Assembly (NCBI GenBank): GCA_041499865.1
Contig: JBGQLA010000001.1
Coordinates: 1 to 45,143 of the forward strand
Reading direction: 5' to 3'
Length of the DNA stretch: 45,143 bases
Source of the DNA: Deltaproteobacteria bacterium
Lineage (GTDB): Bacteria > Myxococcota > Myxococcia > Myxococcales > 40CM-4-68-19
A program made the translations under genes and the position numbers. The notes under the pieces were generated by a model. The model was not told the DNA's origin. It searched no databases and saw only the letters and a list, made by a program, of their open reading frames with translations. Each line of letters starts with the position of its first letter. Positions within the stretch are counted from its first letter, which is position 1. Positions 1 to 28,635 of the stretch are shown here, in pieces.

Positions 1-1962
1 GACGTGCACGCATTGCTCGAAGTGCCGCGCGAGCGGGAAGCTGAGGAACGGCCGCCGCGTGGCCACGAGCTCCATGCAGGTGCTCAGGCCTCCTTGCACG
101 AGCGCGAGATCGCAGCAGGCCAGGTGCTCGAAGAGGTTGTGCACGTAGGGACGCACTTCGAGCCCTTCGAAGCGAGGGAGCTCGTCCGGCGCGAGCCGGG
201 GCCCCGCTACGAGAATCAGGCGCAGCTCGGGCACCTGCCGCTTCATGTGCGGGAAGGCCCGCGCGATCTTCGCCAGCAGATGTCTGCCCACGCCGGTTCC
301 GCCGACCGCGGCGATGGCGACACGTTCGCGGAGGCCGTAGCCGAGGCGCGCGCGCACCTTTTCGGTGTCCGCAAAAGCCGCGGGATCGAACGGCAACGCA
401 TAGCCCGCGTAAGAGAAGTTGCGGTCCGTCCAGGCGCGAATTCGCGGCATCCCGGGTCCGAAGGGATCCTCGGTGACGTCCTCCGGATTGCCGACGAAGA
501 TCGCGGCGTCACGCACGTACGGGAACCGGGCGACGTGTTCGATGTCGTCCGCGTTGCGGTCGGCGCAGAGGAACTTCTCGCGTTCGTCGCCGTCCATCGG
601 CAGGCAGCCGACGAAGTCGGTGAGGAACACGAACGGCTGCCGCTTGAGGTCCGGGTTTTCGTGGAGGTAGTAATCGACGTCCCATGATTCGTCGCCGATG
701 ACGAGGTCATAGTGCTCCTGCTCCAGCAGATCGCTGAATGTCAGGAAATTGTGGACCATGATCTCGTCCATCGTCCGCAGCGCGAAGAACGCGGAGAGAT
801 CGTGCTCCCCGGCGACGTGCTCGAAGTGCCGACTCTCGTTCGCCAGGCGCCTCGCGATCGGGTGCACGCGCTCGCCCTCTTCCGCGAGATAGCCCGCCGC
901 CGGATCGACGGTGAACCAGTCGATCTCGAGATCGGGATGGAGCTTGCGCAGCTCGCGGGCGATCGCCAGGTCGCGCTGCACGTGGCCGAGGCCGATCGGG
1001 CTGGAGATGAAGAGCGCCTTGCGCCGGCGACTCATCGCCCGCACCCAGGTGGAGGTCCGCGGAGCACCGGCGACGAAGTCGCGGACGGATCGATTGAAGA
1101 TCACCGGGTCCCGCACCGAGGTGAGATGGCCGCCGCCGCCGATGGTGAGCAGCTGGGAGCCAGGCACCAGCTTGTGAATCTCCTTGCCGTAGCGATAGGC
1201 CGCGCGCTTGTCGCCGTCGCCATGGATCACCAGGGTCGGGCAGCGGATGCTCCGCGCGAGCTCGCGGACGTCATTGTCGAGCCAGCCCTGGCGGGCCTGC
1301 TCCAGCACCGGGCCGGTCGTCGCCCAGCCGTAGCGCACGCCGTCCTCGAAAGGCTTCGTCGAGTGCGGTTCGGTGAAGACCGATGAAAAGAACCGGTGCA
1401 GGTGTTCCGGCCAGTTGCCGCGCAGACACGCAAGGTCCGCGCGAACCCGCTCGGCCACCTTCGGGTCGTCGACCAGCGACTCGGCGAAGCCCGCCGCGAC
1501 CACGAGGTGCGTGACGCGCTCGGGCTGCTCGGCGGCAATCCGTAAAGCCGTCATCGCGGTGGCAGAGATGCCGATGACCGCCACTTTCTCCACGCCCAGG
1601 GCGTCGAGGACGGCGACGAAGTCTTCGTAGTACGCGTCGAGGCTGTAAGCCGCCTGGTCCCCGGGTCGATCCGAGCGTCCGTTCCCGCGGCAATCCATGG
1701 TGACGACGCGGAAATGGTGCGACAGGTACGGCACGGTCGTCTTCAGCATCTGCGAGTGCACGATCTGGAAGATCGGCGCGAATGCGATCCAGGGGCCGCT
1801 CTCGCCCCAGGCGGCGTACCAGACCTTCACGCCGTCGCGTTCGACATACCCGGTGCGCGCGGGACGCGCGGTTTCGTATGGATACGACTCGCCCGGCAGC
1901 CGTCCGGCCTCGGGCAGCTCGCCGACGATTCGCTGGAAGCTCTGGGGAAACTTCGCATCCAT
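1..1962 (-). CDS. alpha/beta-fold hydrolase fused in frame to a GT-B (MGT/MurG-like, GT1/GT28-type) glycosyltransferase; 3' end runs off the window
   Basis: Absent from the ORF track because the minus-strand frame is open from ATG 1962 to the window edge. Own translation: MDAKFPQSFQ...HFRVVTMDCRGNGRSD...VIGISATAM...GGGGHLTSVRDP (abhydrolase, about 309 aa). This runs without a stop into MSRRRKALFISSPIGLGHVQRD...AAVGGTGVGRHLL...LVQGGLSTCMELV (GT-B). GGAGGA lies 7 nt upstream of the ATG, and the start is 2 nt after the TetR stop. Confidence 0.7.
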   Translation of the reverse strand, partial: MDAKFPQSFQRIVGELPEAGRLPGESYPYETARPARTGYVERDGVKVWYAAWGESGPWIAFAPIFQIVHSQMLKTTVPYLSHHFRVVTMDCRGNGRSDRPGDQAAYSLDAYYEDFVAVLDALGVEKVAVIGISATAMTALRIAAEQPERVTHLVVAAGFAESLVDDPKVAERVRADLACLRGNWPEHLHRFFSSVFTEPHSTKPFEDGVRYGWATTGPVLEQARQGWLDNDVRELARSIRCPTLVIHGDGDKRAAYRYGKEIHKLVPGSQLLTIGGGGHLTSVRDPVIFNRSVRDFVAGAPRTSTWVRAMSRRRKALFISSPIGLGHVQRDLAIARELRKLHPDLEIDWFTVDPAAGYLAEEGERVHPIARRLANESRHFEHVAGEHDLSAFFALRTMDEIMVHNFLTFSDLLEQEHYDLVIGDESWDVDYYLHENPDLKRQPFVFLTDFVGCLPMDGDEREKFLCADRNADDIEHVARFPYVRDAAIFVGNPEDVTEDPFGPGMPRIRAWTDRNFSYAGYALPFDPAAFADTEKVRARLGYGLRERVAIAAVGGTGVGRHLLAKIARAFPHMKRQVPELRLILVAGPRLAPDELPRFEGLEVRPYVHNLFEHLACCDLALVQGGLSTCMELVATRRPFLSFPLARHFEQCVHV

Positions 1963-1964
1963 GC

Positions 1965-2696
1965 TCAGGTCCTCCGCCGCTTTGGAGAGCGTCTGCCGGC
2001 CGCCGCCGTTGGTGCACTTCGCTTGCGCGCCTGCGCGTCGAGCCCTTCGAGCAACTGCTCCATCGCGTCGAGCGCGGCGCGATGGGTGGCCTGTTCCTCG
2101 CGTGCCCCGATCAGGTCGGAGAACTCCATGCCGAGCCAGAATTCCGAGATCCAGGTGGCAATGGCCTCGGCAGTGAACGGCGCGGGCAGCTTGATCCCGC
2201 ACGCTTCTGCGGTGGCCAGCGCGTCGCGGACGCCCCCGAGCACGACCTGTTTCCAGGCACGGATCCGCGGCCGGAACTTCTCGCGCAGCTCCGGGTTCGA
2301 CATGCCCGCCGCCCAGAGCTCGGCCTGCACGCGCACGAAGCCCGAGGCGAGGTCGCTCTCGTAGAAGCGGCGGGCCTGCGCCCACTTCTCCGCAAACCCG
2401 CCGGGGCCGCGGTACATCTGCTGCTGGCGCTCGAGCAGCTGCCGGTTCGCTTCGTCGAGCACGGCGATGACCAGCTGGTCCTTCGTGCGGAAGTGGTAGT
2501 TGATCAGCGCGTGGTTCACGCCCGCGTCCTTGGCGATCTCCCTCGTGCTGAGCGCGGCATAGCCCTGCCGGGCGAGCCGGCGGTAGGCCGCGTCGAGGAT
2601 CTTCGCCTTGGTGGTGCCGAGGTCCGCAGGCGGGAAGAGCTGGGGGCGCTCGGCATCCTCAGGTGTCGCGGCGGTGGTGGGCACGGTGGCGGACAT
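1965..2696 (-). CDS. TetR/AcrR family transcriptional regulator
   Basis: 243-aa ORF with ATG start. The N-terminal HTH AKILDAAYRRLARQGYAALSTREIAKDAGVNHALINYHFRTKDQL is the TetR signature. It is first in an operon with the hydrolase-GT gene and divergent from the dehalogenase. Confidence 0.9.
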   Translation of the reverse strand: MSATVPTTAATPEDAERPQLFPPADLGTTKAKILDAAYRRLARQGYAALSTREIAKDAGVNHALINYHFRTKDQLVIAVLDEANRQLLERQQQMYRGPGGFAEKWAQARRFYESDLASGFVRVQAELWAAGMSNPELREKFRPRIRAWKQVVLGGVRDALATAEACGIKLPAPFTAEAIATWISEFWLGMEFSDLIGAREEQATHRAALDAMEQLLEGLDAQARKRSAPTAAAGRRSPKRRRT

Positions 2697-2713
2697 CTCC
2701 CTGGTCAGTTTCC

Positions 2714-2742
2714 TTGAGCGACTGGTTTAACCGACTGTTCAA
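2714..2742. promoter_or_regulatory. candidate TetR operator (imperfect 29-bp palindrome)
   Basis: TTGAGCGACTGGTTTAACCGACTGTTCAA: central GGTT-T-AACC is perfect and the outer TTGA/TCAA arms match. It sits in the AT-richer spacer between the divergent TetR and dehalogenase genes. Purely sequence-based. Confidence 0.35.
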
Positions 2743-2828
2743 CTCTAAGCCGGTCGAAGGGCCGCGTCAAGTGCGAAGCGCAACGGCACGTGGCAAGCTC
2801 CCTGCGGCGCGCGTCCCCGAGGTGTGAG

Positions 2829-3695
2829 GTGTTCGAAGGCTTCGAGAAGACCACTGTCCAGACCACAGGGGCCGTGATCAACCTGGTGCGCGCCGGCGAG
2901 GGCCCGCCGCTTCTGCTCCTGCACGGGTACCCGCAGACGCTCGCGATGTGGCACCGGGTGGCGCCCCGGCTCACCCGGCACTTCACGGTCATCGCCGCCG
3001 ACTTGCGGGGATACGGCTCGAGCAGCAAGCCCGAGGGCGGCGCGGACCATGCCGGCTACTCGAAGCGCGCCATGGCGCAGGACCAGGTCGAGATGATGCG
3101 GCGGCTGGGATTCGAGGAGTTCTTCCTCGCGGGCCACGACCGCGGGGGACGCGTCGGCCATCGCATGGCGCTCGATCATCCGGGGCGCGTGAAGAAGCTG
3201 GCGGTCCTCGATATCGTGCCCACGAGGACCATGTTCGCGCAGGTCGACCAGTATCTCGCTACCGTCTACTACCACTGGTTCTTCCTCATCCAGCCCTTCG
3301 ACCTGCCCGAGCGGATGATCGGAGCGGATCCGGAGTTCTTCCTGCGCAACTTCTTCTCGCGCCTCGCCGCGGGTGCGCTCGCGCCCGAGGCAGTCGCCGA
3401 GTACCTGCGGGCGTTCCGCGATCCCGCGGTAATCCACGCGACCTGCGAGGACTACCGCGCGGCGGCGAGCATCGATCTCGAGCAGGATGCCGCCGACCTG
3501 GCGACGAAAGTGGCCTGCCCGCTGCTCGCGCTCTGGGGCGCGAAGGGCCGCATCGCGCAAGGCTTCGACGTGCTGGCCACATGGCGCGAGCGCGCGACCG
3601 ACGTCCGCGGGCGCGCCCTGCCCTGCGGGCACTACCTGCCGGAAGAGGCTCCGGAGGAGACGCTGCAGGAGCTGCTCGCCTTTTTCCGCAGTTGA
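2829..3695 (+). CDS. haloacetate (fluoroacetate) dehalogenase-like alpha/beta hydrolase
   Basis: ORF track gives 2790..3695 (GTG). I prefer GTG 2829 (GAGG 6 nt upstream) because homologues recalled from memory start at FEGFE. Motifs: LLLLHGYPQT, GHDRGGRVGHRM (nucleophile Asp plus two Arg), LAVLDIVP, YYHWFF, CEDYRAAA, CGHYLPEE. Confidence 0.85.
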   Translation: MFEGFEKTTVQTTGAVINLVRAGEGPPLLLLHGYPQTLAMWHRVAPRLTRHFTVIAADLRGYGSSSKPEGGADHAGYSKRAMAQDQVEMMRRLGFEEFFLAGHDRGGRVGHRMALDHPGRVKKLAVLDIVPTRTMFAQVDQYLATVYYHWFFLIQPFDLPERMIGADPEFFLRNFFSRLAAGALAPEAVAEYLRAFRDPAVIHATCEDYRAAASIDLEQDAADLATKVACPLLALWGAKGRIAQGFDVLATWRERATDVRGRALPCGHYLPEEAPEETLQELLAFFRS

Positions 3696-22381: not shown

Positions 22382-22428
22382 CGACCCGGTTGGCCCGACT
22401 CGCTTCCGACCGGCAGCCGCCCGGCAGC

Positions 22429-22863
22429 CTATTTCTTCTGCGCCTTCATCCGGCGCTCCATCTCGTCGGGAGGCACGTCCTCGACGTGGGTGCCGATCGA
22501 CCAGGTGTTGCCCCAGCGGTCCGTCACGGTGGCGACGCGGTCGCCGTAGAACTGGTTCGCGGGCTCGCGGTTCGACTGACCGCCCGCCGCAACAGCCTTC
22601 TTGTAGGTCGCATCCACGTCCGGGACGTAGAGATAGGAAACCATCCTCGACGGCGGATACTCAGGGCTTGTGTCGGCGAGCATCACCACCGAGTCGCCCA
22701 CGCGCACCTCCGCATGGCCGACCTTTCCGCCCGGCGCCGGGAAGCGATAGACCTCCTGGCCACCGAAGGCCTTCTTGACGAATTCGATGAAGTCGGACGC
22801 GCCCTCGACGACGAAATAGGGGGTGAACGTGTGGTAGCCCTCGGGAATCGGCTTGACGGCCAT
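22429..22863 (-). CDS. VOC (glyoxalase/bleomycin-resistance, PhnB-like) family protein
   Basis: 144 aa: PEGYHTFTPYFVV...GKVGHAEVRVGDSVVMLADT...FYGDRVATVTDRWGNTWSIGTH is the usual PhnB-like pattern. Confidence 0.85.
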   Translation of the reverse strand: MAVKPIPEGYHTFTPYFVVEGASDFIEFVKKAFGGQEVYRFPAPGGKVGHAEVRVGDSVVMLADTSPEYPPSRMVSYLYVPDVDATYKKAVAAGGQSNREPANQFYGDRVATVTDRWGNTWSIGTHVEDVPPDEMERRMKAQKK

Positions 22864-23018
22864 GACGTCCTCCTGGGTCGACTGAACCGCGCCCTCCTAT
22901 CACAACCAGCGCGCGGCGGCGTGGGCGGTTCAGTGACACTCGCGGGCAGCCTTCGCCGAGCTCGCGCTGACGGGAAGCTGGGACCTCACAACTCGGGTAC
23001 CGTCTGCGTTGTCCACGC

Positions 23019-23780
23019 ATGACACCGAACTCTCCATCGTCACGCGGCAGGATGGGCCGCAGCCGCCTGGGCGGCGTCGCCACCGCGCTAGCGCCGGCGC
23101 AAGGGTCCGCGCCGCGGCAGCTCGCCCTCGGCATCCCCTCCCCGGCCCGTGTCCACGAAGTCCTTCTGCCGGGCGCCGTGAAGATCCCCGGCTGGCTCAG
23201 CCATGATGCGCAGCGATCGCTCGCCGCCGGGTTCCGCCAGTGGGCTTTGCCGCCGGCCGGGCTCCGGCACCCGCGGGTCCCGAGCGGACATCTGATGAGC
23301 GTCCAGTCGGTGTGCCTGGGGTGGCACTGGGAGCCGTACACGTATTCGAGGACGGCCGACGACACCGACGGCGCGCCGGTCAAGCCGTTGCCTGTCGAGC
23401 TCGCCGATCTGGCCCGGGCTGCCGTCGCGGAAGCTTACGGACCGAACTGCGCAGCCTCCTACGCACCGGACGCGGCGATCGTGAACCTCTACGCTTCGGG
23501 AGCGCACCTCGGGCTGCATCTCGACGGCGAGGAGCCCAGCGACGCTCCGGTCGTCACCCTCAGCCTCGGCGACAGCTGCGTGTTCCGGTTTGCGGGCGTC
23601 GGCCGGCGCAATGGCCCCTTCACCGACGTCGAGCTCCGCTCCGGCGATCTGCTGGTCTTCGGCGGGCCGAGCCGGCGCATCTATCACGGCGTCCCCGAGG
23701 TGCTCGAGGGGACGGCGCCGGAAGACCTCGGCCTTCCCCCGGGCAGGGTGAGCATCACTCTGCGGGAGACCGGACTGTGA
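23019..23780 (+). CDS. alkB: alpha-ketoglutarate/Fe(II)-dependent dioxygenase AlkB (alkylated DNA repair)
   Basis: 253 aa: LPGAVKIPGWLS, AAIVNLYASGAHLGLHLDGEE (HxD), LLVFGGPSRRIYHGV (distal His), RVSITLRE (Arg pair). The start is uncertain between ATG 23019 and ATG 23052. Confidence 0.85.
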   Translation: MTPNSPSSRGRMGRSRLGGVATALAPAQGSAPRQLALGIPSPARVHEVLLPGAVKIPGWLSHDAQRSLAAGFRQWALPPAGLRHPRVPSGHLMSVQSVCLGWHWEPYTYSRTADDTDGAPVKPLPVELADLARAAVAEAYGPNCAASYAPDAAIVNLYASGAHLGLHLDGEEPSDAPVVTLSLGDSCVFRFAGVGRRNGPFTDVELRSGDLLVFGGPSRRIYHGVPEVLEGTAPEDLGLPPGRVSITLRETGL

Positions 23781-24538
23781 AGGGCGCCGTTTGCGCGCTG
23801 CCGCATTCCGGGCGCCAAGGAGCCGCGGCGTTGCCAGTTGCAGCGCGCGTGGCGGGACTGGACTGGACCGCGATCTCCCGAGGCCTCGACGACCTTGGTT
23901 CGTCACTCACGGGTCCCGTCCTGGGGCCGCCGGAGTGCAAGGGGATCGCGGAGCTCTACGGCGACGATCTCCATTTTCGCTCGACCATCGACATGGCCCG
24001 CTACCGGTTCGGACAGGGCCAGTACCGCTACTTCGACCGACCGCTGCCGAGGCTGGTCGCGGAGCTGCGGGCCGCGTTCTGGCCGCATCTCTTGCCGATC
24101 GCCAGGGCGTGGGCGGGACGCCTGGGGCAGCCTGCGCCATGGCCGGACAGCCTCGACGACTGGCTCGAGCAGTGCCACGAAGCAGGTCAGACCCGGCCTA
24201 CGCCGCTCTTGCTTCGCTACGGGCCGGGCGACTGGAACGCCTTGCACCGCGACCTCTACGGCGAGCTCGTGTTCCCGCTGCAGGTCGTCATCGGCCTCGA
24301 CCGGCCGGGTGTGGACTACACGGGCGGAGAGTTCATCACGCTCGAGCAGCGGCCCCGCGCCCAGTCTCGCGGGACCACGAGCGCCATCGCCCAAGGTCAG
24401 GGCCTTGTCTTCACCACGCGGGACCGGCCGGTGCCGTCGCGCCGGGGCTGGTCCGCAGCGCCGATGCGCCACGGAGTCAGCGTGCTGCGCTCCGGCCGCC
24501 GTCACACTCTCGGCCTCGTCTTCCACGACGCCCGATGA
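23777..24538 (+). CDS. 2OG-Fe(II) oxygenase family protein (second oxygenase of the repair operon)
   Basis: GTG 23777 overlaps the alkB stop (GTGA), with GGGAGA 7 nt upstream. FGQGQYRYFDRPLP, TPLLLRYGPGDWNALHRDLYG (HxD), GGEFITLEQRPRAQSRG, MRHGVSVLRSGRRHTLGLVFHDA. Alternative in-frame start GTG 23849. Confidence 0.7.
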   Translation: MKGAVCALPHSGRQGAAALPVAARVAGLDWTAISRGLDDLGSSLTGPVLGPPECKGIAELYGDDLHFRSTIDMARYRFGQGQYRYFDRPLPRLVAELRAAFWPHLLPIARAWAGRLGQPAPWPDSLDDWLEQCHEAGQTRPTPLLLRYGPGDWNALHRDLYGELVFPLQVVIGLDRPGVDYTGGEFITLEQRPRAQSRGTTSAIAQGQGLVFTTRDRPVPSRRGWSAAPMRHGVSVLRSGRRHTLGLVFHDAR

Positions 24539-25020
24539 CCGCACCGCGGCAGCGGGGGGCGCGACCGTTCGAGGAGATCGTCGCCGAGCACGGCGCCCTG
24601 GTGATGCGCGTGTGCCGGGCGCTGGTGGGGCCCGCGGACGCCGCCGACGCCTGGTCGGAGACGTTCCTGTCCGCCCTGCAGGCGTATCCAAGGCTGCCAG
24701 CGGGCAGCAACATCCGGGGGTGGCTCGTCACCATCGCCCATCGGAAGGCGATCGATCAGCTCCGGGGCGCCGCGCGAAGGGCGCGCGAGGTGCCCGAGCT
24801 GGCCGTCCCCGAGCCGGCCTCGGCGGATGACGGCGAGCTCCGCGCCGCTCTGGACGCCCTGCCGCCCAAGCAGCGCGGCGCAGTGATCTACCGGTATCTC
24901 GCCGAGCTCTCGTACGCCGAGGTCGGCGAGATCCTGGGTTCCAACGCCACCGCTGCCCGGCGAAGCGCGGCGGATGGCATCGCGAGCCTTCGCAAGCGTC
25001 TTTCGAAAGGAACGTCATGA
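24535..25020 (+). CDS. ECF-type (sigma2+sigma4) sigma-70 family RNA polymerase sigma factor
   Basis: ATG 24535 overlaps the upstream stop (ATGA). 161 aa: region 2 VMRVCRALVG...AWSETFL...RGWLVTIAHRKAIDQLR, region 4 LPPKQRGAVIYRYLAELSYAEVGEILGSNATAARRSAADGIASLRKRL. Confidence 0.85.
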   Translation: MTAPRQRGARPFEEIVAEHGALVMRVCRALVGPADAADAWSETFLSALQAYPRLPAGSNIRGWLVTIAHRKAIDQLRGAARRAREVPELAVPEPASADDGELRAALDALPPKQRGAVIYRYLAELSYAEVGEILGSNATAARRSAADGIASLRKRLSKGTS

Positions 25021-25640
25021 CCACCGACAAGCAGATCATCGATCGCCTCGAGCAGGGATTTTCCGGCTCCTCCGCCGCATTCGATACCGACGGCAGGCTG
25101 CGCGGCCGGCTCGCCGCGCTGGCGGAGCGGCAAGGACTCCTCGACGTGTCGTACCGCACCATCGACAGCCCGCTCGGGCCGCTGCTCCTGGCAGCGACCG
25201 GGAAGGGCCTGGTGCGGGTGGCGTTCAGCCGGGAAGATCATCAGTCGGTCCTTTCCCGCCTCGCGAGCGACATCAGCCCGCGGATCCTCCGCACGCCCCG
25301 GCGGCTCGACAAGGCGGCGCGCCAACTCGAGGAGTACTTCACCGGCAAGCGACGCGCGTTCACCGTGCCGGTCGATCTGCGGCTCGCCCAGGGGTTCCGT
25401 CGCTCGGTGCTCCTGCACCTGCGCGACATTCCTTACGGCGAGACGCAGAGCTACACCGCCCTGGCGAAGGCCGCGGGCAATCCGTCCGCAGTCCGGGCGG
25501 CCGCCAGCGCGTGCTCGCACAATCCGCTGCCACTGGTCGTGCCCTGCCATCGCGTCGTGCGCAGCGATGGCAGCTTTGGCGAGTACCTCGGCGGCCCCAA
25601 GGCCAAGCACGCCTTGCTCGCGATGGAGGCGGCGGGGTGA
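25017..25640 (+). CDS. ogt: methylated-DNA--protein-cysteine methyltransferase (Ogt/MGMT) with ~45-aa N-terminal extension
   Basis: ATG 25017 overlaps the sigma stop (ATGA). 207 aa: IPYGETQSYTALA...NPLPLVVPCHRVVRSDGSFGEYLGG contains the PCHR active site. The usual N-terminal domain (SPLGPLLLAATGKGLVRVAF) is preceded by extra residues MTTDKQIIDRLEQGFSGSSAAFDTDGRLRGRLAALAERQGL. Confidence 0.9.
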   Translation: MTTDKQIIDRLEQGFSGSSAAFDTDGRLRGRLAALAERQGLLDVSYRTIDSPLGPLLLAATGKGLVRVAFSREDHQSVLSRLASDISPRILRTPRRLDKAARQLEEYFTGKRRAFTVPVDLRLAQGFRRSVLLHLRDIPYGETQSYTALAKAAGNPSAVRAAASACSHNPLPLVVPCHRVVRSDGSFGEYLGGPKAKHALLAMEAAG

Positions 25641-25842
25641 GATGGCGGCTCGCGAGGGAGAGGGACTCGACGCGGCCCGCCTCTGCGGCCCACCTCGACG
25701 CTGACGCCCGGAGCGCCGTCGCGCAGCCGCTCCAGGGCGGAGGCGCGACATCGACGGCTGTCTACCCTCCAGATGGGGGATGCCGGCCCCGATCGCGTGT
25801 GTTACTTGATCGAATCATGCCGCACCGAACTGGACCGATGCA

Positions 25843-28635
25843 GTGCGCTTCCTGACGTGTCAGGGCCTCGCCCCCGGCGACCTCGCCGACAAGGTGGAGA
25901 AAGTCCGCGCCGCGATCGAGCGCGACGATTTCCGCTCCGCGGATGTGAAGAAGCTGGCCGTCCGGGGCTTCTATCGGGCGAAGCTCGACGATGCCTGCCG
26001 GCTCCTGCTCGTCTTCGCCGATTACCGGGGCGGGAAAGCATGCCTCGCGCTGGAGATCATCCGGGGCCACGCCTATGACCGCTCGCGCTTTCTGCGCGGC
26101 GCACCGGTCGACGAATCGAAGCTGGGCGATCCCGGTCCACCGGAGCCGCCGGACGCGCAGCCCCTGCGCTACCTGCACCCGGAACGGCCGGTGTTTCACT
26201 ATCTCGACAAGCCCCTGTCCTTCGACGACCTGCAGGACGCGGCGCTGCGCCAGCGGCTTCCTCTCGTGCTGGTGGGCTCGGCCGGGAGCGGGAAGACCGC
26301 CCTGCTCTTGCAGCGGCTGCGGGGCATCGCCGGCCGGGTGGCCTACGTCACGGAATCGAGATGGCTCGCCGAGACCTCGCGCGCTCTCTACGTGGCCTGC
26401 GAGGGCGCGCCCGAGGATCAAGAGGCCGACTTCCTCAGCTACCGGCAGCTGCTGGAAACCGTCGGAGTCCCCGCCGGCCGGCCCGTGTCCTTCCGCGACT
26501 TCACCGGCTTCTTCGCCCGCCACCGGCAGGCCATCCGATTCGCGGACGCCCACCAGGTCTACGAGGAGCTGCGCGGCGTTCTCACCGCCGAGCCCGAGGG
26601 GCCGCTCCCGCGCGAAGCGTATCTCGGCCTGGGCGTGCGCCAGTCGATGTTCGACTCCGGGCAGCGCGCGATGATCTTCGCGCTCTTCGAGCGCTACCGC
26701 GCCTGGCTCGGGGCAGAGAACCTGTACGATCCAAACCTGGTCGCCCACGCCTGGCTGCCGAGGATGGAACCGACGTACGACTTCGTCGCGGTGGACGAGG
26801 TGCAGGATCTGTCGAACGTCCAGCTCGCGTTGATCCTGAAATCCCTGAAGGCCCCTGGCCAGTTCATCATCGCCGGGGACGCCAACCAGATCGTGCACCC
26901 CAATTTCTTCTCCTGGTCGAGGGTGAAGAGCCTCTTCTGGCGCGGGCTGGGGGAAGCGCAAAAGACGGACGTCCACCTGCTCGACGTCAGCTACCGCAAC
27001 AGCGACGAGGTCACGCGCGCGGCAAACGGCGTCCTCCGCCTCAAGCACGCGAAGTTCGGATCGATCGACCGGGAGTCGAATCTTCTGATGCGGCCGCTGG
27101 CGGGCATCGCGGGCTCGGTCACCGCCATCGGCGCCGGGAGCGCGGCCGTCCGCGAGCTGGACGAGAAGACGCGGCAGTCCACGAAGGCCGCGGTGATCGT
27201 CCTGCGCGACGAGCACAAGGCCGAGGCGCGGCAGCGCTTCCGCACGCCGCTGGTGTTCAGCATCCACGAGGCCAAGGGGCTCGAGTACGAGACGGTGATC
27301 GTGCACCGCCTGATCTCCGCCGAGCGCCGCATGTTCGCGGAGCTGTGCGAAGGCGTGACGGCCGGCGATCTCGCGCGGGACGAGCTCGAGTACCGGCGGG
27401 CAAAGGACAAGAGCGACCGATCGCTGGAGCTGTACAAGTTCTTCGTCAACGCGCTCTACGTGGCGCTCACGCGCGCGGTGCGGCAGGTGGTGCTGGTGGA
27501 GGACGATCCCGGCCATCCACTCCTGGAATTGCTCGGCATCGGGCGCGCCGACAACGGCTCGGTGCAAATGGAGAAGTCCTCGGCCGAGGAATGGCAGCGG
27601 GAGGCGCACCGGCTGGAGGCGCAGGGAAAGACCGAGCAGGCCGAGGCGATCCGCGCGGAAGTGCTGCGGCTGCGGCCCGTTCCCTGGCAGGTGTTCGACC
27701 GCGCGAATCTGCAGGCGCTGGCGGCGAAGGCGCTCGCGCCCGGCAGCGTATCTGCCAAGGCGAAGCAGCAGCTCTTCGAGCTGGCGTGCTTCCATGAGGA
27801 GAGACTGGTGGCGGAGCGCCTGGCGGAGGAAGCGCGCTTCGAGCCGGCGGCGCAGTATGACGCGCAGCGCGAGCGGATCGCCCGGCGCGCGCTCGACGGA
27901 TTCGAGGGCAAGAACTTCAAGGAGGTGCTCGCCCGGACGGAGCACCATGGCGTCGATTACCGGAGTCCGCAGAACCTCACTCCGCTGATGCTCGCGGCGT
28001 TCGCCGGCAACGTGGCGCTCGTCGAAGCGCTGCTGGCGCGCGGAGCGAGCCTGGAAGCGCGCGACCATGCGGGGCGCACGGCGCTTCACTGGGCGATCCG
28101 CCACGCCTATCGCGACCCTGCGTTCGCCGCGAACGCGTTCGGCACCGTCTTCGATCTGGTCGCTCCTCCATCGTTCGACGTGGAGGCCTCGGGACGGCTG
28201 CTGCAGATCGGGCGGGAGATGGGCGAGTATTTCTTCTTCTCCACCCTGATCGCCCGGTTCGACGAGCTCTACCGCTGGCGCAGGGGCCGGTTCAGCGCGG
28301 TGACGAGCCAGTTCTTCCTTCGCCAGCCTTTCGAGCATTTCCCGGAGGTGGTGATCAAGGCGGCCCGGAAGCGGCGCACCTACGTCAACGGGCTCCTTGC
28401 CCGCAACGAGCCGGGCAGCGCTTACGTGCCAAATCGCCAACTCTGGGTGCGCGAGTCGTTCGGCCACTACGTGCCAAACCCCGCGCTCAGCCTGCGGGTG
28501 GCCGGTGCGGACGGCGCGGATGCGTGGGTGCCGCTGCACGAGGTGATGGACCTCGCCTGGCTCGAATCGCACTTCGAGGTCGGAGCGAGAGGGCGGCTCA
28601 CCGGCGGGAGAGTGGATGTGGCGGCCACGGGATAA
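25843..28635 (+). CDS. multidomain SF1 (UvrD-like) helicase: RelE/ParE-like N-terminal domain + helicase core + helical/TPR-like linker + ankyrin repeats + unknown C-terminal domain
   Basis: 930-aa ORF (GTG 25843; alternative GTG 25894). Walker A GSAGSGKT (26275-26298), VDEVQD (26791-26808), IAGDANQIVHP, SYRNSDEV, IHEAKGLEYETVIV, LYVALTRA. Ankyrin TPLMLAAFAGNVALVEALLARGASLEARDHAGRTALHWAIRHA (~27979-28110). N-terminus DVKKLAVRGFYRAKLDDACRLLLVF...LALEIIRGHAYD. Confidence 0.8.
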   Translation: MRFLTCQGLAPGDLADKVEKVRAAIERDDFRSADVKKLAVRGFYRAKLDDACRLLLVFADYRGGKACLALEIIRGHAYDRSRFLRGAPVDESKLGDPGPPEPPDAQPLRYLHPERPVFHYLDKPLSFDDLQDAALRQRLPLVLVGSAGSGKTALLLQRLRGIAGRVAYVTESRWLAETSRALYVACEGAPEDQEADFLSYRQLLETVGVPAGRPVSFRDFTGFFARHRQAIRFADAHQVYEELRGVLTAEPEGPLPREAYLGLGVRQSMFDSGQRAMIFALFERYRAWLGAENLYDPNLVAHAWLPRMEPTYDFVAVDEVQDLSNVQLALILKSLKAPGQFIIAGDANQIVHPNFFSWSRVKSLFWRGLGEAQKTDVHLLDVSYRNSDEVTRAANGVLRLKHAKFGSIDRESNLLMRPLAGIAGSVTAIGAGSAAVRELDEKTRQSTKAAVIVLRDEHKAEARQRFRTPLVFSIHEAKGLEYETVIVHRLISAERRMFAELCEGVTAGDLARDELEYRRAKDKSDRSLELYKFFVNALYVALTRAVRQVVLVEDDPGHPLLELLGIGRADNGSVQMEKSSAEEWQREAHRLEAQGKTEQAEAIRAEVLRLRPVPWQVFDRANLQALAAKALAPGSVSAKAKQQLFELACFHEERLVAERLAEEARFEPAAQYDAQRERIARRALDGFEGKNFKEVLARTEHHGVDYRSPQNLTPLMLAAFAGNVALVEALLARGASLEARDHAGRTALHWAIRHAYRDPAFAANAFGTVFDLVAPPSFDVEASGRLLQIGREMGEYFFFSTLIARFDELYRWRRGRFSAVTSQFFLRQPFEHFPEVVIKAARKRRTYVNGLLARNEPGSAYVPNRQLWVRESFGHYVPNPALSLRVAGADGADAWVPLHEVMDLAWLESHFEVGARGRLTGGRVDVAATG

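Follow-up and report, generated by a model that had tools for sequence, protein, structure and literature searches.

The adaptive response of bacteria to DNA alkylation is understood almost entirely through Ada. The question raised here is how a small alkylation-repair operon that encodes its own sigma factor, and has no recognizable anti-sigma gene beside it, could be switched on and off. The operon lies at positions 23019 to 25640 of a 45,143-nucleotide stretch of DNA (the window; contig JBGQLA010000001.1 of assembly GCA_041499865.1, contig C1 in our numbering) from a 4.9-Mb metagenome-assembled genome (MAG) that is 92% complete and whose close homologues bear the source name "Myxococcales bacterium." Its four same-strand genes encode an AlkB-like demethylase, a PF09859 oxygenase, an extracytoplasmic function (ECF) sigma factor, and an N-terminally extended O6-alkylguanine-DNA alkyltransferase (Ogt), and they are joined into one overlapping operon by three 4-nt stop/start overlaps (GTGA at 23777-23780, ATGA at 24535-24538, and ATGA at 25017-25020), all of which lie where the original prediction, made from the DNA letters, had placed them. 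It is very likely that this operon is a sigma-driven, autoregulated alkylation-repair cassette. That the brake is the extended Ogt, acting as an anti-sigma factor inactivated by its own irreversible alkylation, is as a whole chain nearly an even call. Somewhat more tentative is the general form of the proposal, in which the extended Ogt would be a consumable anti-sigma factor that frees one sigma for each alkyl group removed, giving an Ada-independent adaptive response carried as a mobile cassette in at least 6 phyla.

The sigma factor and the extended Ogt are conserved as a coupled pair

The third gene (24535 to 25020, plus strand) encodes a minimal ECF sigma factor of 161 amino acids (aa), in which Pfam recognized only region 2 (residues 16 to 82) and region 4 (residues 101 to 154; models r4_2 and r4) and which NCBIfam placed in the ECF superfamily (TIGR02937, 68.8 bits; cutoff, 42.9); it directly precedes ogt, as had been described. 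Relatives were collected by a scan of one genome per species, and the best 80 of 188 relatives were taken for locus counts. The sigma homologues were 54 to 95% identical, shared the family-wide motifs PFE.IV.EHG..VLRVCRA and WLVTIAH.KAID, and came from at least 6 phyla; the best 80 loci spanned Myxococcota, Actinomycetota (including Nocardia, Tsukamurella, Geodermatophilus, Streptosporangium, Nocardiopsis, Pseudonocardia, and Acidimicrobiia), Methylomirabilota, Binatia, Chloroflexota, Acidobacteriota, and one Burkholderiales MAG. The gene after sigma encoded an Ogt more than 50% identical to that of the window in 78 of the 80 loci, and in 71 of these 78 the sigma stop and the ogt start overlapped as ATGA, with the Shine-Dalgarno sequence within the 3' end of the sigma gene. 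The seven remaining overlaps were GTGA or TGATG (four loci), 7 nt (two loci), and 22 nt (one locus). Other repair genes varied in both presence and position (PF09859 in 45/80 loci, alkB in 24/80, Ada-Zn in 17/80, and a second, canonical Ogt in 13/80), and gene order was sigma-ogt-oxygenase-(alkB) in actinobacteria and alkB-oxygenase-sigma-ogt in Myxococcales. Adjacency of sigma and Ogt outside this genome, on which the original prediction had staked the pairing, was thus found, with the two genes coupled and co-inherited across phyla.

Co-occurrence was assessed in 121 genomes of the order of Tsukamurella, which are related and hence not independent, with a sigma threshold of E < 1e-30. The sigma factor was present in 40 genomes and the extended Ogt in 42; all 40 sigma-positive genomes carried the extended Ogt, 41 of the 42 genomes positive for the extended Ogt had the sigma factor, and the two genes were adjacent in 39 of the 40 sigma-positive genomes. 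The exceptions were a genome with a frameshifted sigma gene beside ogt (G057), one in which no sigma gene was found (G152), and one with the two genes on different contigs (G158), in which the orphan extended Ogt keeps the promoter motif of the family. Where the genes are unlinked (G158 and G165), copy numbers of sigma and extended Ogt were still 1:1, and the genome of an apparently orphan sigma locus (L025) contained two copies each of sigma and of the extended Ogt, forming one linked and one unlinked pair. A 1:1 ratio that persists after unlinking is more than operon hitch-hiking.

The association of sigma and Ogt is already catalogued, as ECF122, with the mechanism listed as unknown; what the window adds is a Myxococcota variant of the cassette. 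ECF122 is mainly actinobacterial (model protein WP_057211282.1 from Cellulomonas sp. Root930; Casas-Pastor et al. 2021 as summarized in PMC8999054) and is described as an ECF group without an anti-sigma factor, in which 6-O-methylguanine DNA methyltransferases are conserved neighbors with a possible regulatory role by an "unknown mechanism" (PMC8999054). That account is silent on promoter motif, leaderless layout, overlap statistics, conserved extension, and regulon composition, and the main text of the ECF classification paper does not discuss ECF122 (PMC7826278). No experimental study of an Ogt-type anti-sigma factor or of ECF122 was found in the literature. The window sigma is likewise a minimal ECF factor, composed of regions 2 and 4 only, with a conserved 6-O-methylguanine DNA methyltransferase neighbor and with no anti-sigma factor of a known family among its neighbors or in the Ogt extension, whereas it differs from the group in sitting in a Myxococcales MAG with alkB and PF09859 upstream of sigma. 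We assign it as ECF122-type from gene context and the actinobacterial center of gravity of the family rather than from a hidden Markov model of the group. Its sole cysteine, Cys27 (codon 24613-24615; motif RVCRA, region 2.1), is at least 90% conserved in 79 family members and may be a buried helix residue.

The operon is predicted to be transcribed by its own sigma factor

The search for a shared promoter motif upstream of alkB, which had been suggested with the original prediction, yielded one of ECF type at 22982 to 23012 (plus strand). In 76 upstream regions of the family the top dyad was CTCAC-N17-CGTT/C, with CGTT in 35 and CGTC in 21 regions, compared with 7 for the best shuffled dyad. 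Refinement gave the consensus GACCTCAC(G/A)-N16-CGTyTAC, and the spacer had the same length in 52 of 54 cases. Of the 76 loci, 55 had the motif in the 80 nt preceding sigma, against an expected 0.003 per locus, and 74 had it within 2 kb upstream; further copies preceded alkB, the second Ogt, and other units of the same loci. An ATG or GTG followed 10 to 12 nt past the C of CGT, and leaderless mRNAs are therefore implied. The first start codon, from which the motif keeps a fixed distance, is that of sigma in actinobacteria and that of alkB in the window.

In the window, the -35-like element GACCTCAC (22982 to 22989) and the -10-like element CGTTGT (23007 to 23012), with a 17-nt spacer between CTCAC and CGT, are followed after 6 nt by the ATG of alkB. 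In seven Myxococcales loci no block other than the motif was conserved ahead of alkB, and the window site was the best match to the position weight matrix (PWM) in the 4.9-Mb genome (score, 18.0); the score alone is within genome-wide chance, as two sites scoring 16.7 or more turned up in shuffled genomes, and it is the position of the site that counts. No second good site was found in the genome-wide PWM scan, in which lower-scoring sites were at the level of the shuffled control, and neither a sigma-70-type promoter nor an intrinsic terminator was found in 22400-25900. On this sequence evidence, the cassette sigma would read the promoter at 22982-23012, by which the operon would be positively autoregulated, and the operon appears to be the only clear target of the sigma factor in this genome.

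Nucleotide similarity to related Myxococcales loci (L002 to L019) began at about 22978-22983, at the -35 element, and ended at about 25630-25652, at the ogt stop, and the flanks were unrelated and never syntenic, even within the genus. The sharp borders and unrelated flanks therefore delimit a discrete promoter-to-stop cassette (22982 to 25640, 2.7 kb). The cassette of a close relative (G011, locus L002) has cleanly lost its PF09859 gene, the sigma factor is patchy in the genus (5 of 18 genomes searched), and an Acidimicrobiia MAG encodes a sigma factor that shares 71% identity with that of the window. The operon, in which no mobility gene is recognizable, behaves like a mobile cassette, and these patterns suggest that it probably moved horizontally.

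The extended Ogt is a candidate consumable anti-sigma factor

The last gene (25017 to 25640, plus strand) encodes an alkyltransferase of 207 aa with the domains Methyltransf_1N (PF02870, residues 45 to 121) and DNA_binding_1 (PF01035, residues 127 to 205) and with PCHRVV at residues 176 to 181, the codon of the active-site Cys177 being 25545-25547. The Ogt fold begins after about 44 residues, which agrees with the intact PCHRVV site and the roughly 45 extra N-terminal residues read earlier from the sequence. PCHRV was invariant in 73 aligned Ogt sequences, which points to a genuine single-turnover alkyl acceptor. In an AlphaFold2 (AF2) model of the protein (pLDDT, 92; pTM, 0.83), the best Foldseek matches were Mycobacterium tuberculosis OGT (TM, 0.86, target normalized) and the C-terminal part of Escherichia coli Ada, and human MGMT was matched as well; since only about 163 columns were aligned, no solved structure contains the extension.

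The extension (residues 1 to 44; 25017 to 25148, plus strand), a candidate sigma-binding element by model and conservation, was predicted by AF2 to form one helix at residues 4 to 16 (pLDDT, 58 to 78) and another at residues 20 to 38 (pLDDT, 72 to 86), after which the standard Ogt fold begins. Across the 73 sequences A36 and D43 were invariant, L28, L32, and L42 were at least 90% conserved, and R27, H/R29, and R31 were strongly conserved; residues 11 to 15 form a hydrophobic patch, L-(F/L)-x-x-(L/F), and the conserved Arg and His residues are exposed in the model. Canonical Ogt paralogues were without the extension, even within the same regulon, and in each of four actinobacterial genomes a single extended Ogt (229 bits or more, with coverage from residue 19 to 26) was accompanied by two to four shorter paralogues, which scored no higher than 126 bits and whose matches began no earlier than residue 30. 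The presence of a canonical Ogt in 13 regulons suggests a division of labor.

We propose the following chain of events. The ECF sigma factor of the cassette would recognize the promoter of the single leaderless operon, giving positive autoregulation, and through the ATGA overlap sigma and the N-extended Ogt would be produced at a constant ratio. Unalkylated Ogt would hold sigma inactive through its two-helix N-terminal extension. Irreversible transfer of an alkyl group from O6-alkylguanine to Cys177 would then destabilize or remove Ogt and free the sigma factor; alkylated human MGMT is structurally destabilized, and the same is assumed for the window Ogt. Freed sigma would raise transcription of alkB, the PF09859 oxygenase, sigma itself, and fresh Ogt, and, with the damage cleared, new unalkylated Ogt would sequester sigma again. 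Ogt is the likeliest brake because its pairing and coupling with sigma are invariant, its extension is specific to the clade, no other regulator is conserved, additional "working" Ogts are present, and a precedent exists in fusions of a zinc anti-sigma (ZAS) domain with Ogt (see below). An autoregulated sigma factor needs a brake, and the loci hold no other conserved candidate, which favors Ogt.

If the proposal is true, it would amount to a second, mechanistically different alkylation response, based on titration of a sigma factor by a suicide enzyme, and to a new class of anti-sigma signal, namely, irreversible enzymatic self-alkylation; ECF122 would gain a mechanism, and transcription of the cassette would track repair capacity already spent. 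The cassette is small and has one promoter, and since its predicted promoter, the cysteine that would sense damage, and the helix that may bind sigma are all defined, the proposal is directly testable; another possible use of the module is as an orthogonal biosensor for alkylation.

Precedents for an anti-sigma Ogt and evidence against it

The nearest precedent is a family of ZAS-Ogt-Ada_Zn fusion proteins of about 320 aa, comprising at least 183 clusters with the source names Methylomirabilota and Acidobacteriota, for which, together with their ECF sigma factor, no paper was found in the literature. At locus L158 (G415, contig C39), an ECF sigma gene, whose product is 31% identical to the window sigma, is followed by a gene for a fusion of 324 aa that contains zf-HC2 at residues 8 to 42 (C...HxxxCxxC), both Ogt domains, and Ada_Zn_binding, and at four further loci (L177 to L180) the ZAS-Ogt gene overlaps the ECF sigma gene by 4 nt in a two-gene operon. 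By analogy, these fusions resemble the window system in that the ECF sigma gene shares 4 nt with a gene that encodes an intact Ogt and in that an inhibitor of sigma would be joined to a single-use alkyl acceptor. They differ in having, besides a C-terminal Ada-Zn domain, a zinc anti-sigma domain of about 87 aa, and in sequence (sigma, 31% identical; Ogt, 38% identical). Among better-known systems, RsrA is a soluble anti-sigma factor that is inactivated by covalent modification of a cysteine, and NepR and CnrY are very short helical sigma-binding elements. The sigma-binding elements of NepR and CnrY are comparable in size to the extension; oxidation of RsrA is reversible, whereas alkylation of Ogt is not, and no sequence or profile similarity was found between the extension and class I ZAS anti-sigma factors (RsrA/SigR), NepR, or CnrY.

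Descent of the extension from a ZAS anti-sigma domain, as a remnant, was also considered and was unsupported by Pfam, by hhalign with two targets, and by a maximum-likelihood (ML) tree. That tree, built from Ogt cores, grouped the extended Ogts and their Chloroflexota sister clade together (support, 99 to 100). A full-length global hhalign placed residues 1 to 46 on positions 48 to 92 of the ZAS-Ogt profile with low column confidence. Positions 29, 33, and 36 of Ogt (25101 to 25124) are H/R, A/V, and an invariant A, respectively, the spacing of HxxxCxxC with the cysteines missing; this likeness may be a coincidence, and profile comparisons do not support homology.

Several results weigh against Ogt as the brake. 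The extension had no match in Pfam (all 73 members) or the PDB. It aligned with the ZAS domains of this genome with an hhalign probability of only 0.15%, and a comparison of pre-Ogt segments with the anti-sigma domain of ZAS-Ogt was colinear (4-38 to 51-85) at P = 0.02, the reversed control giving P = 0.05. In the ML tree the ZAS-Ogt clade fell elsewhere, among canonical Ogts and not beside the extended clade, and ZAS-Ogt is therefore a precedent of design by analogy and not by ancestry. Apparent natural sigma-Ogt fusions among the 150 best sigma representatives (P0156, P0230, P0237, and P0265) proved to be frameshift artifacts with out-of-frame Arg/Pro-rich stretches. Helix 2 of the extension is fairly confident in the model of the monomer and may pack on the enzyme, and the tight coupling of sigma and Ogt could equally be explained by Ogt being the main effector. 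Finally, a classical Ada-AlkA/Ogt operon is present in the genome as well (contig C134, locus L089, about 1483-3206, minus strand), in which an Ada(Zn)-AraC-AlkA fusion of 420 aa is followed by an unextended Ogt beginning MLQIDTVDTPIGPL; two alkylation-response systems therefore coexist in this genome. Read-through from sigma into Ogt was considered separately at two loci (L044 and L055) and gave no clean fusion, Ogt being in the +1 frame and GATG being in frame elsewhere as well. Of the original proposal, the sigma-based alkylation response has become well supported, while the suicide anti-sigma Ogt remains conjectural, its extension matching no anti-sigma family and no fusion being genuine.

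Alternative explanations

The strongest alternative, which we consider rather unlikely, is that the sigma factor drives the cassette and the extended Ogt is merely its main product, with the activity of sigma governed by proteolysis, an unlinked regulator, or plain control of transcription and the extension serving the enzyme in cooperative DNA binding, oligomerization, or stability. This would fit an extension that has no detectable similarity to any anti-sigma domain and whose second helix is modeled with fair confidence in the monomer, and the N-terminal domain of M. tuberculosis OGT does participate in cooperative DNA binding. It leaves unexplained, however, why the pair is the sole invariant part of the loci, why the 4-nt overlap is kept in 71 of 78 of them, why the ratio stays 1:1 when the genes are unlinked, and why 13 regulons contain a second, unextended Ogt, and it would leave a positively autoregulated sigma factor without a conserved brake.

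A second alternative is an Ada-like positive switch, in which alkylated Ogt would activate transcription by binding sigma, RNA polymerase, or the promoter. In E. coli the methylated form of Ada is the activator and contacts region 4 of sigma-70, the window Ogt has a DNA-binding helix-turn-helix domain, and the NCBIfam Ada model aligns Ogt residues 11 to 205 to Ada residues 155 to 349. The activating methyl group of Ada, however, is on its N-terminal Zn domain and not on the Ogt-type cysteine, and that domain is absent here; only 17 of the 80 loci carry Ada-Zn on a small gene of its own, and this genome does not. The DNA motif, moreover, has promoter geometry, with a 17-nt spacer and a fixed distance to the start codon, and shows no extra operator, and the module that is fused to Ogt in the ZAS-Ogt family is an inhibitory anti-sigma domain. 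Together these points make a positive switch improbable.

An Ogt that acts by inhibition, as preferred here, would still have much in common with Ada. In both systems a suicide acceptor of alkyl groups would be the sensor that induces repair genes of the alkB and ogt types, and the regulator gene would be autoregulated. E. coli Ada, however, is a one-component AraC-type activator that becomes active once its N-terminal Zn(Cys)4 site is methylated and that uses sigma-70 or sigma-S, whereas the window system has a dedicated ECF sigma factor as its output and no Zn domain, and an Ogt-type cysteine would sense damage by relief of inhibition. Incidental clustering, in which sigma would have its targets elsewhere and a different sigma factor would read the upstream motif, could draw on a PWM score within the range of chance but is very improbable, given that the motif accompanies sigma whatever the phylum or gene order, with a constant interval between it and the first start codon, that the genome has no second good site, and that similarity of the cassettes begins exactly at the motif.

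Other genes of the cassette and its surroundings

The first gene (23019 to 23780, plus strand) encodes an AlkB-like 2-oxoglutarate (2OG)/Fe(II) oxidative DNA demethylase of 253 aa (2OG-FeII_Oxy_2, PF13532; E = 2.9e-42), whose translation shows the motifs HLD...H...RxxxxxR. Its NCBIfam scores of 104 bits (NF011930; cutoff, 267) and 91 bits (TIGR00568; cutoff, 231) are below the cutoffs of the E. coli-type equivalogs, and it belongs to the broader PF13532 family. The second gene (23777 to 24538, plus strand) starts with GTG and encodes a PF09859 "Oxygenase-NA" 2OG/Fe(II) oxygenase, also of 253 aa (Pfam E = 7.6e-80), the match being full length (266.9 bits, profile positions 1 to 172 of 172). By Pfam, the cassette is flanked by a divergent glyoxalase-family gene on one side and by an unrelated helicase/ankyrin gene on the other, the helicase gene lying 200 nt after ogt. 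None of the neighbors matched an anti-sigma family in Pfam, as expected from the earlier failure to recognize an anti-sigma gene by eye. Elsewhere in the genome, contig C75 encodes an ATL-like protein of 106 aa with PWWRV in place of PCHRV.

A stand-alone Ada_Zn_binding gene (PF02805; about 85 aa) was found neither in the window nor in this genome. It forms part of the 17 cassettes counted above, including that of a relative in the same genus, and lies, for example, at about 2519-2776 of L010, 1393-1659 of L034, and 5800-6063 of L076. In an Acidimicrobiia MAG (L024, 4450 to 5841), the frame of the extended Ogt runs about 260 residues further with no Pfam match; alkB is split at the same locus, hence a possible assembly error. 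The Chloroflexota sister clade (L104 to L118), with sigma factors 40 to 47% and Ogts 45 to 51% identical to those of the window, has an extension of the same length in which the motif of helix 1 differs (LERRL).

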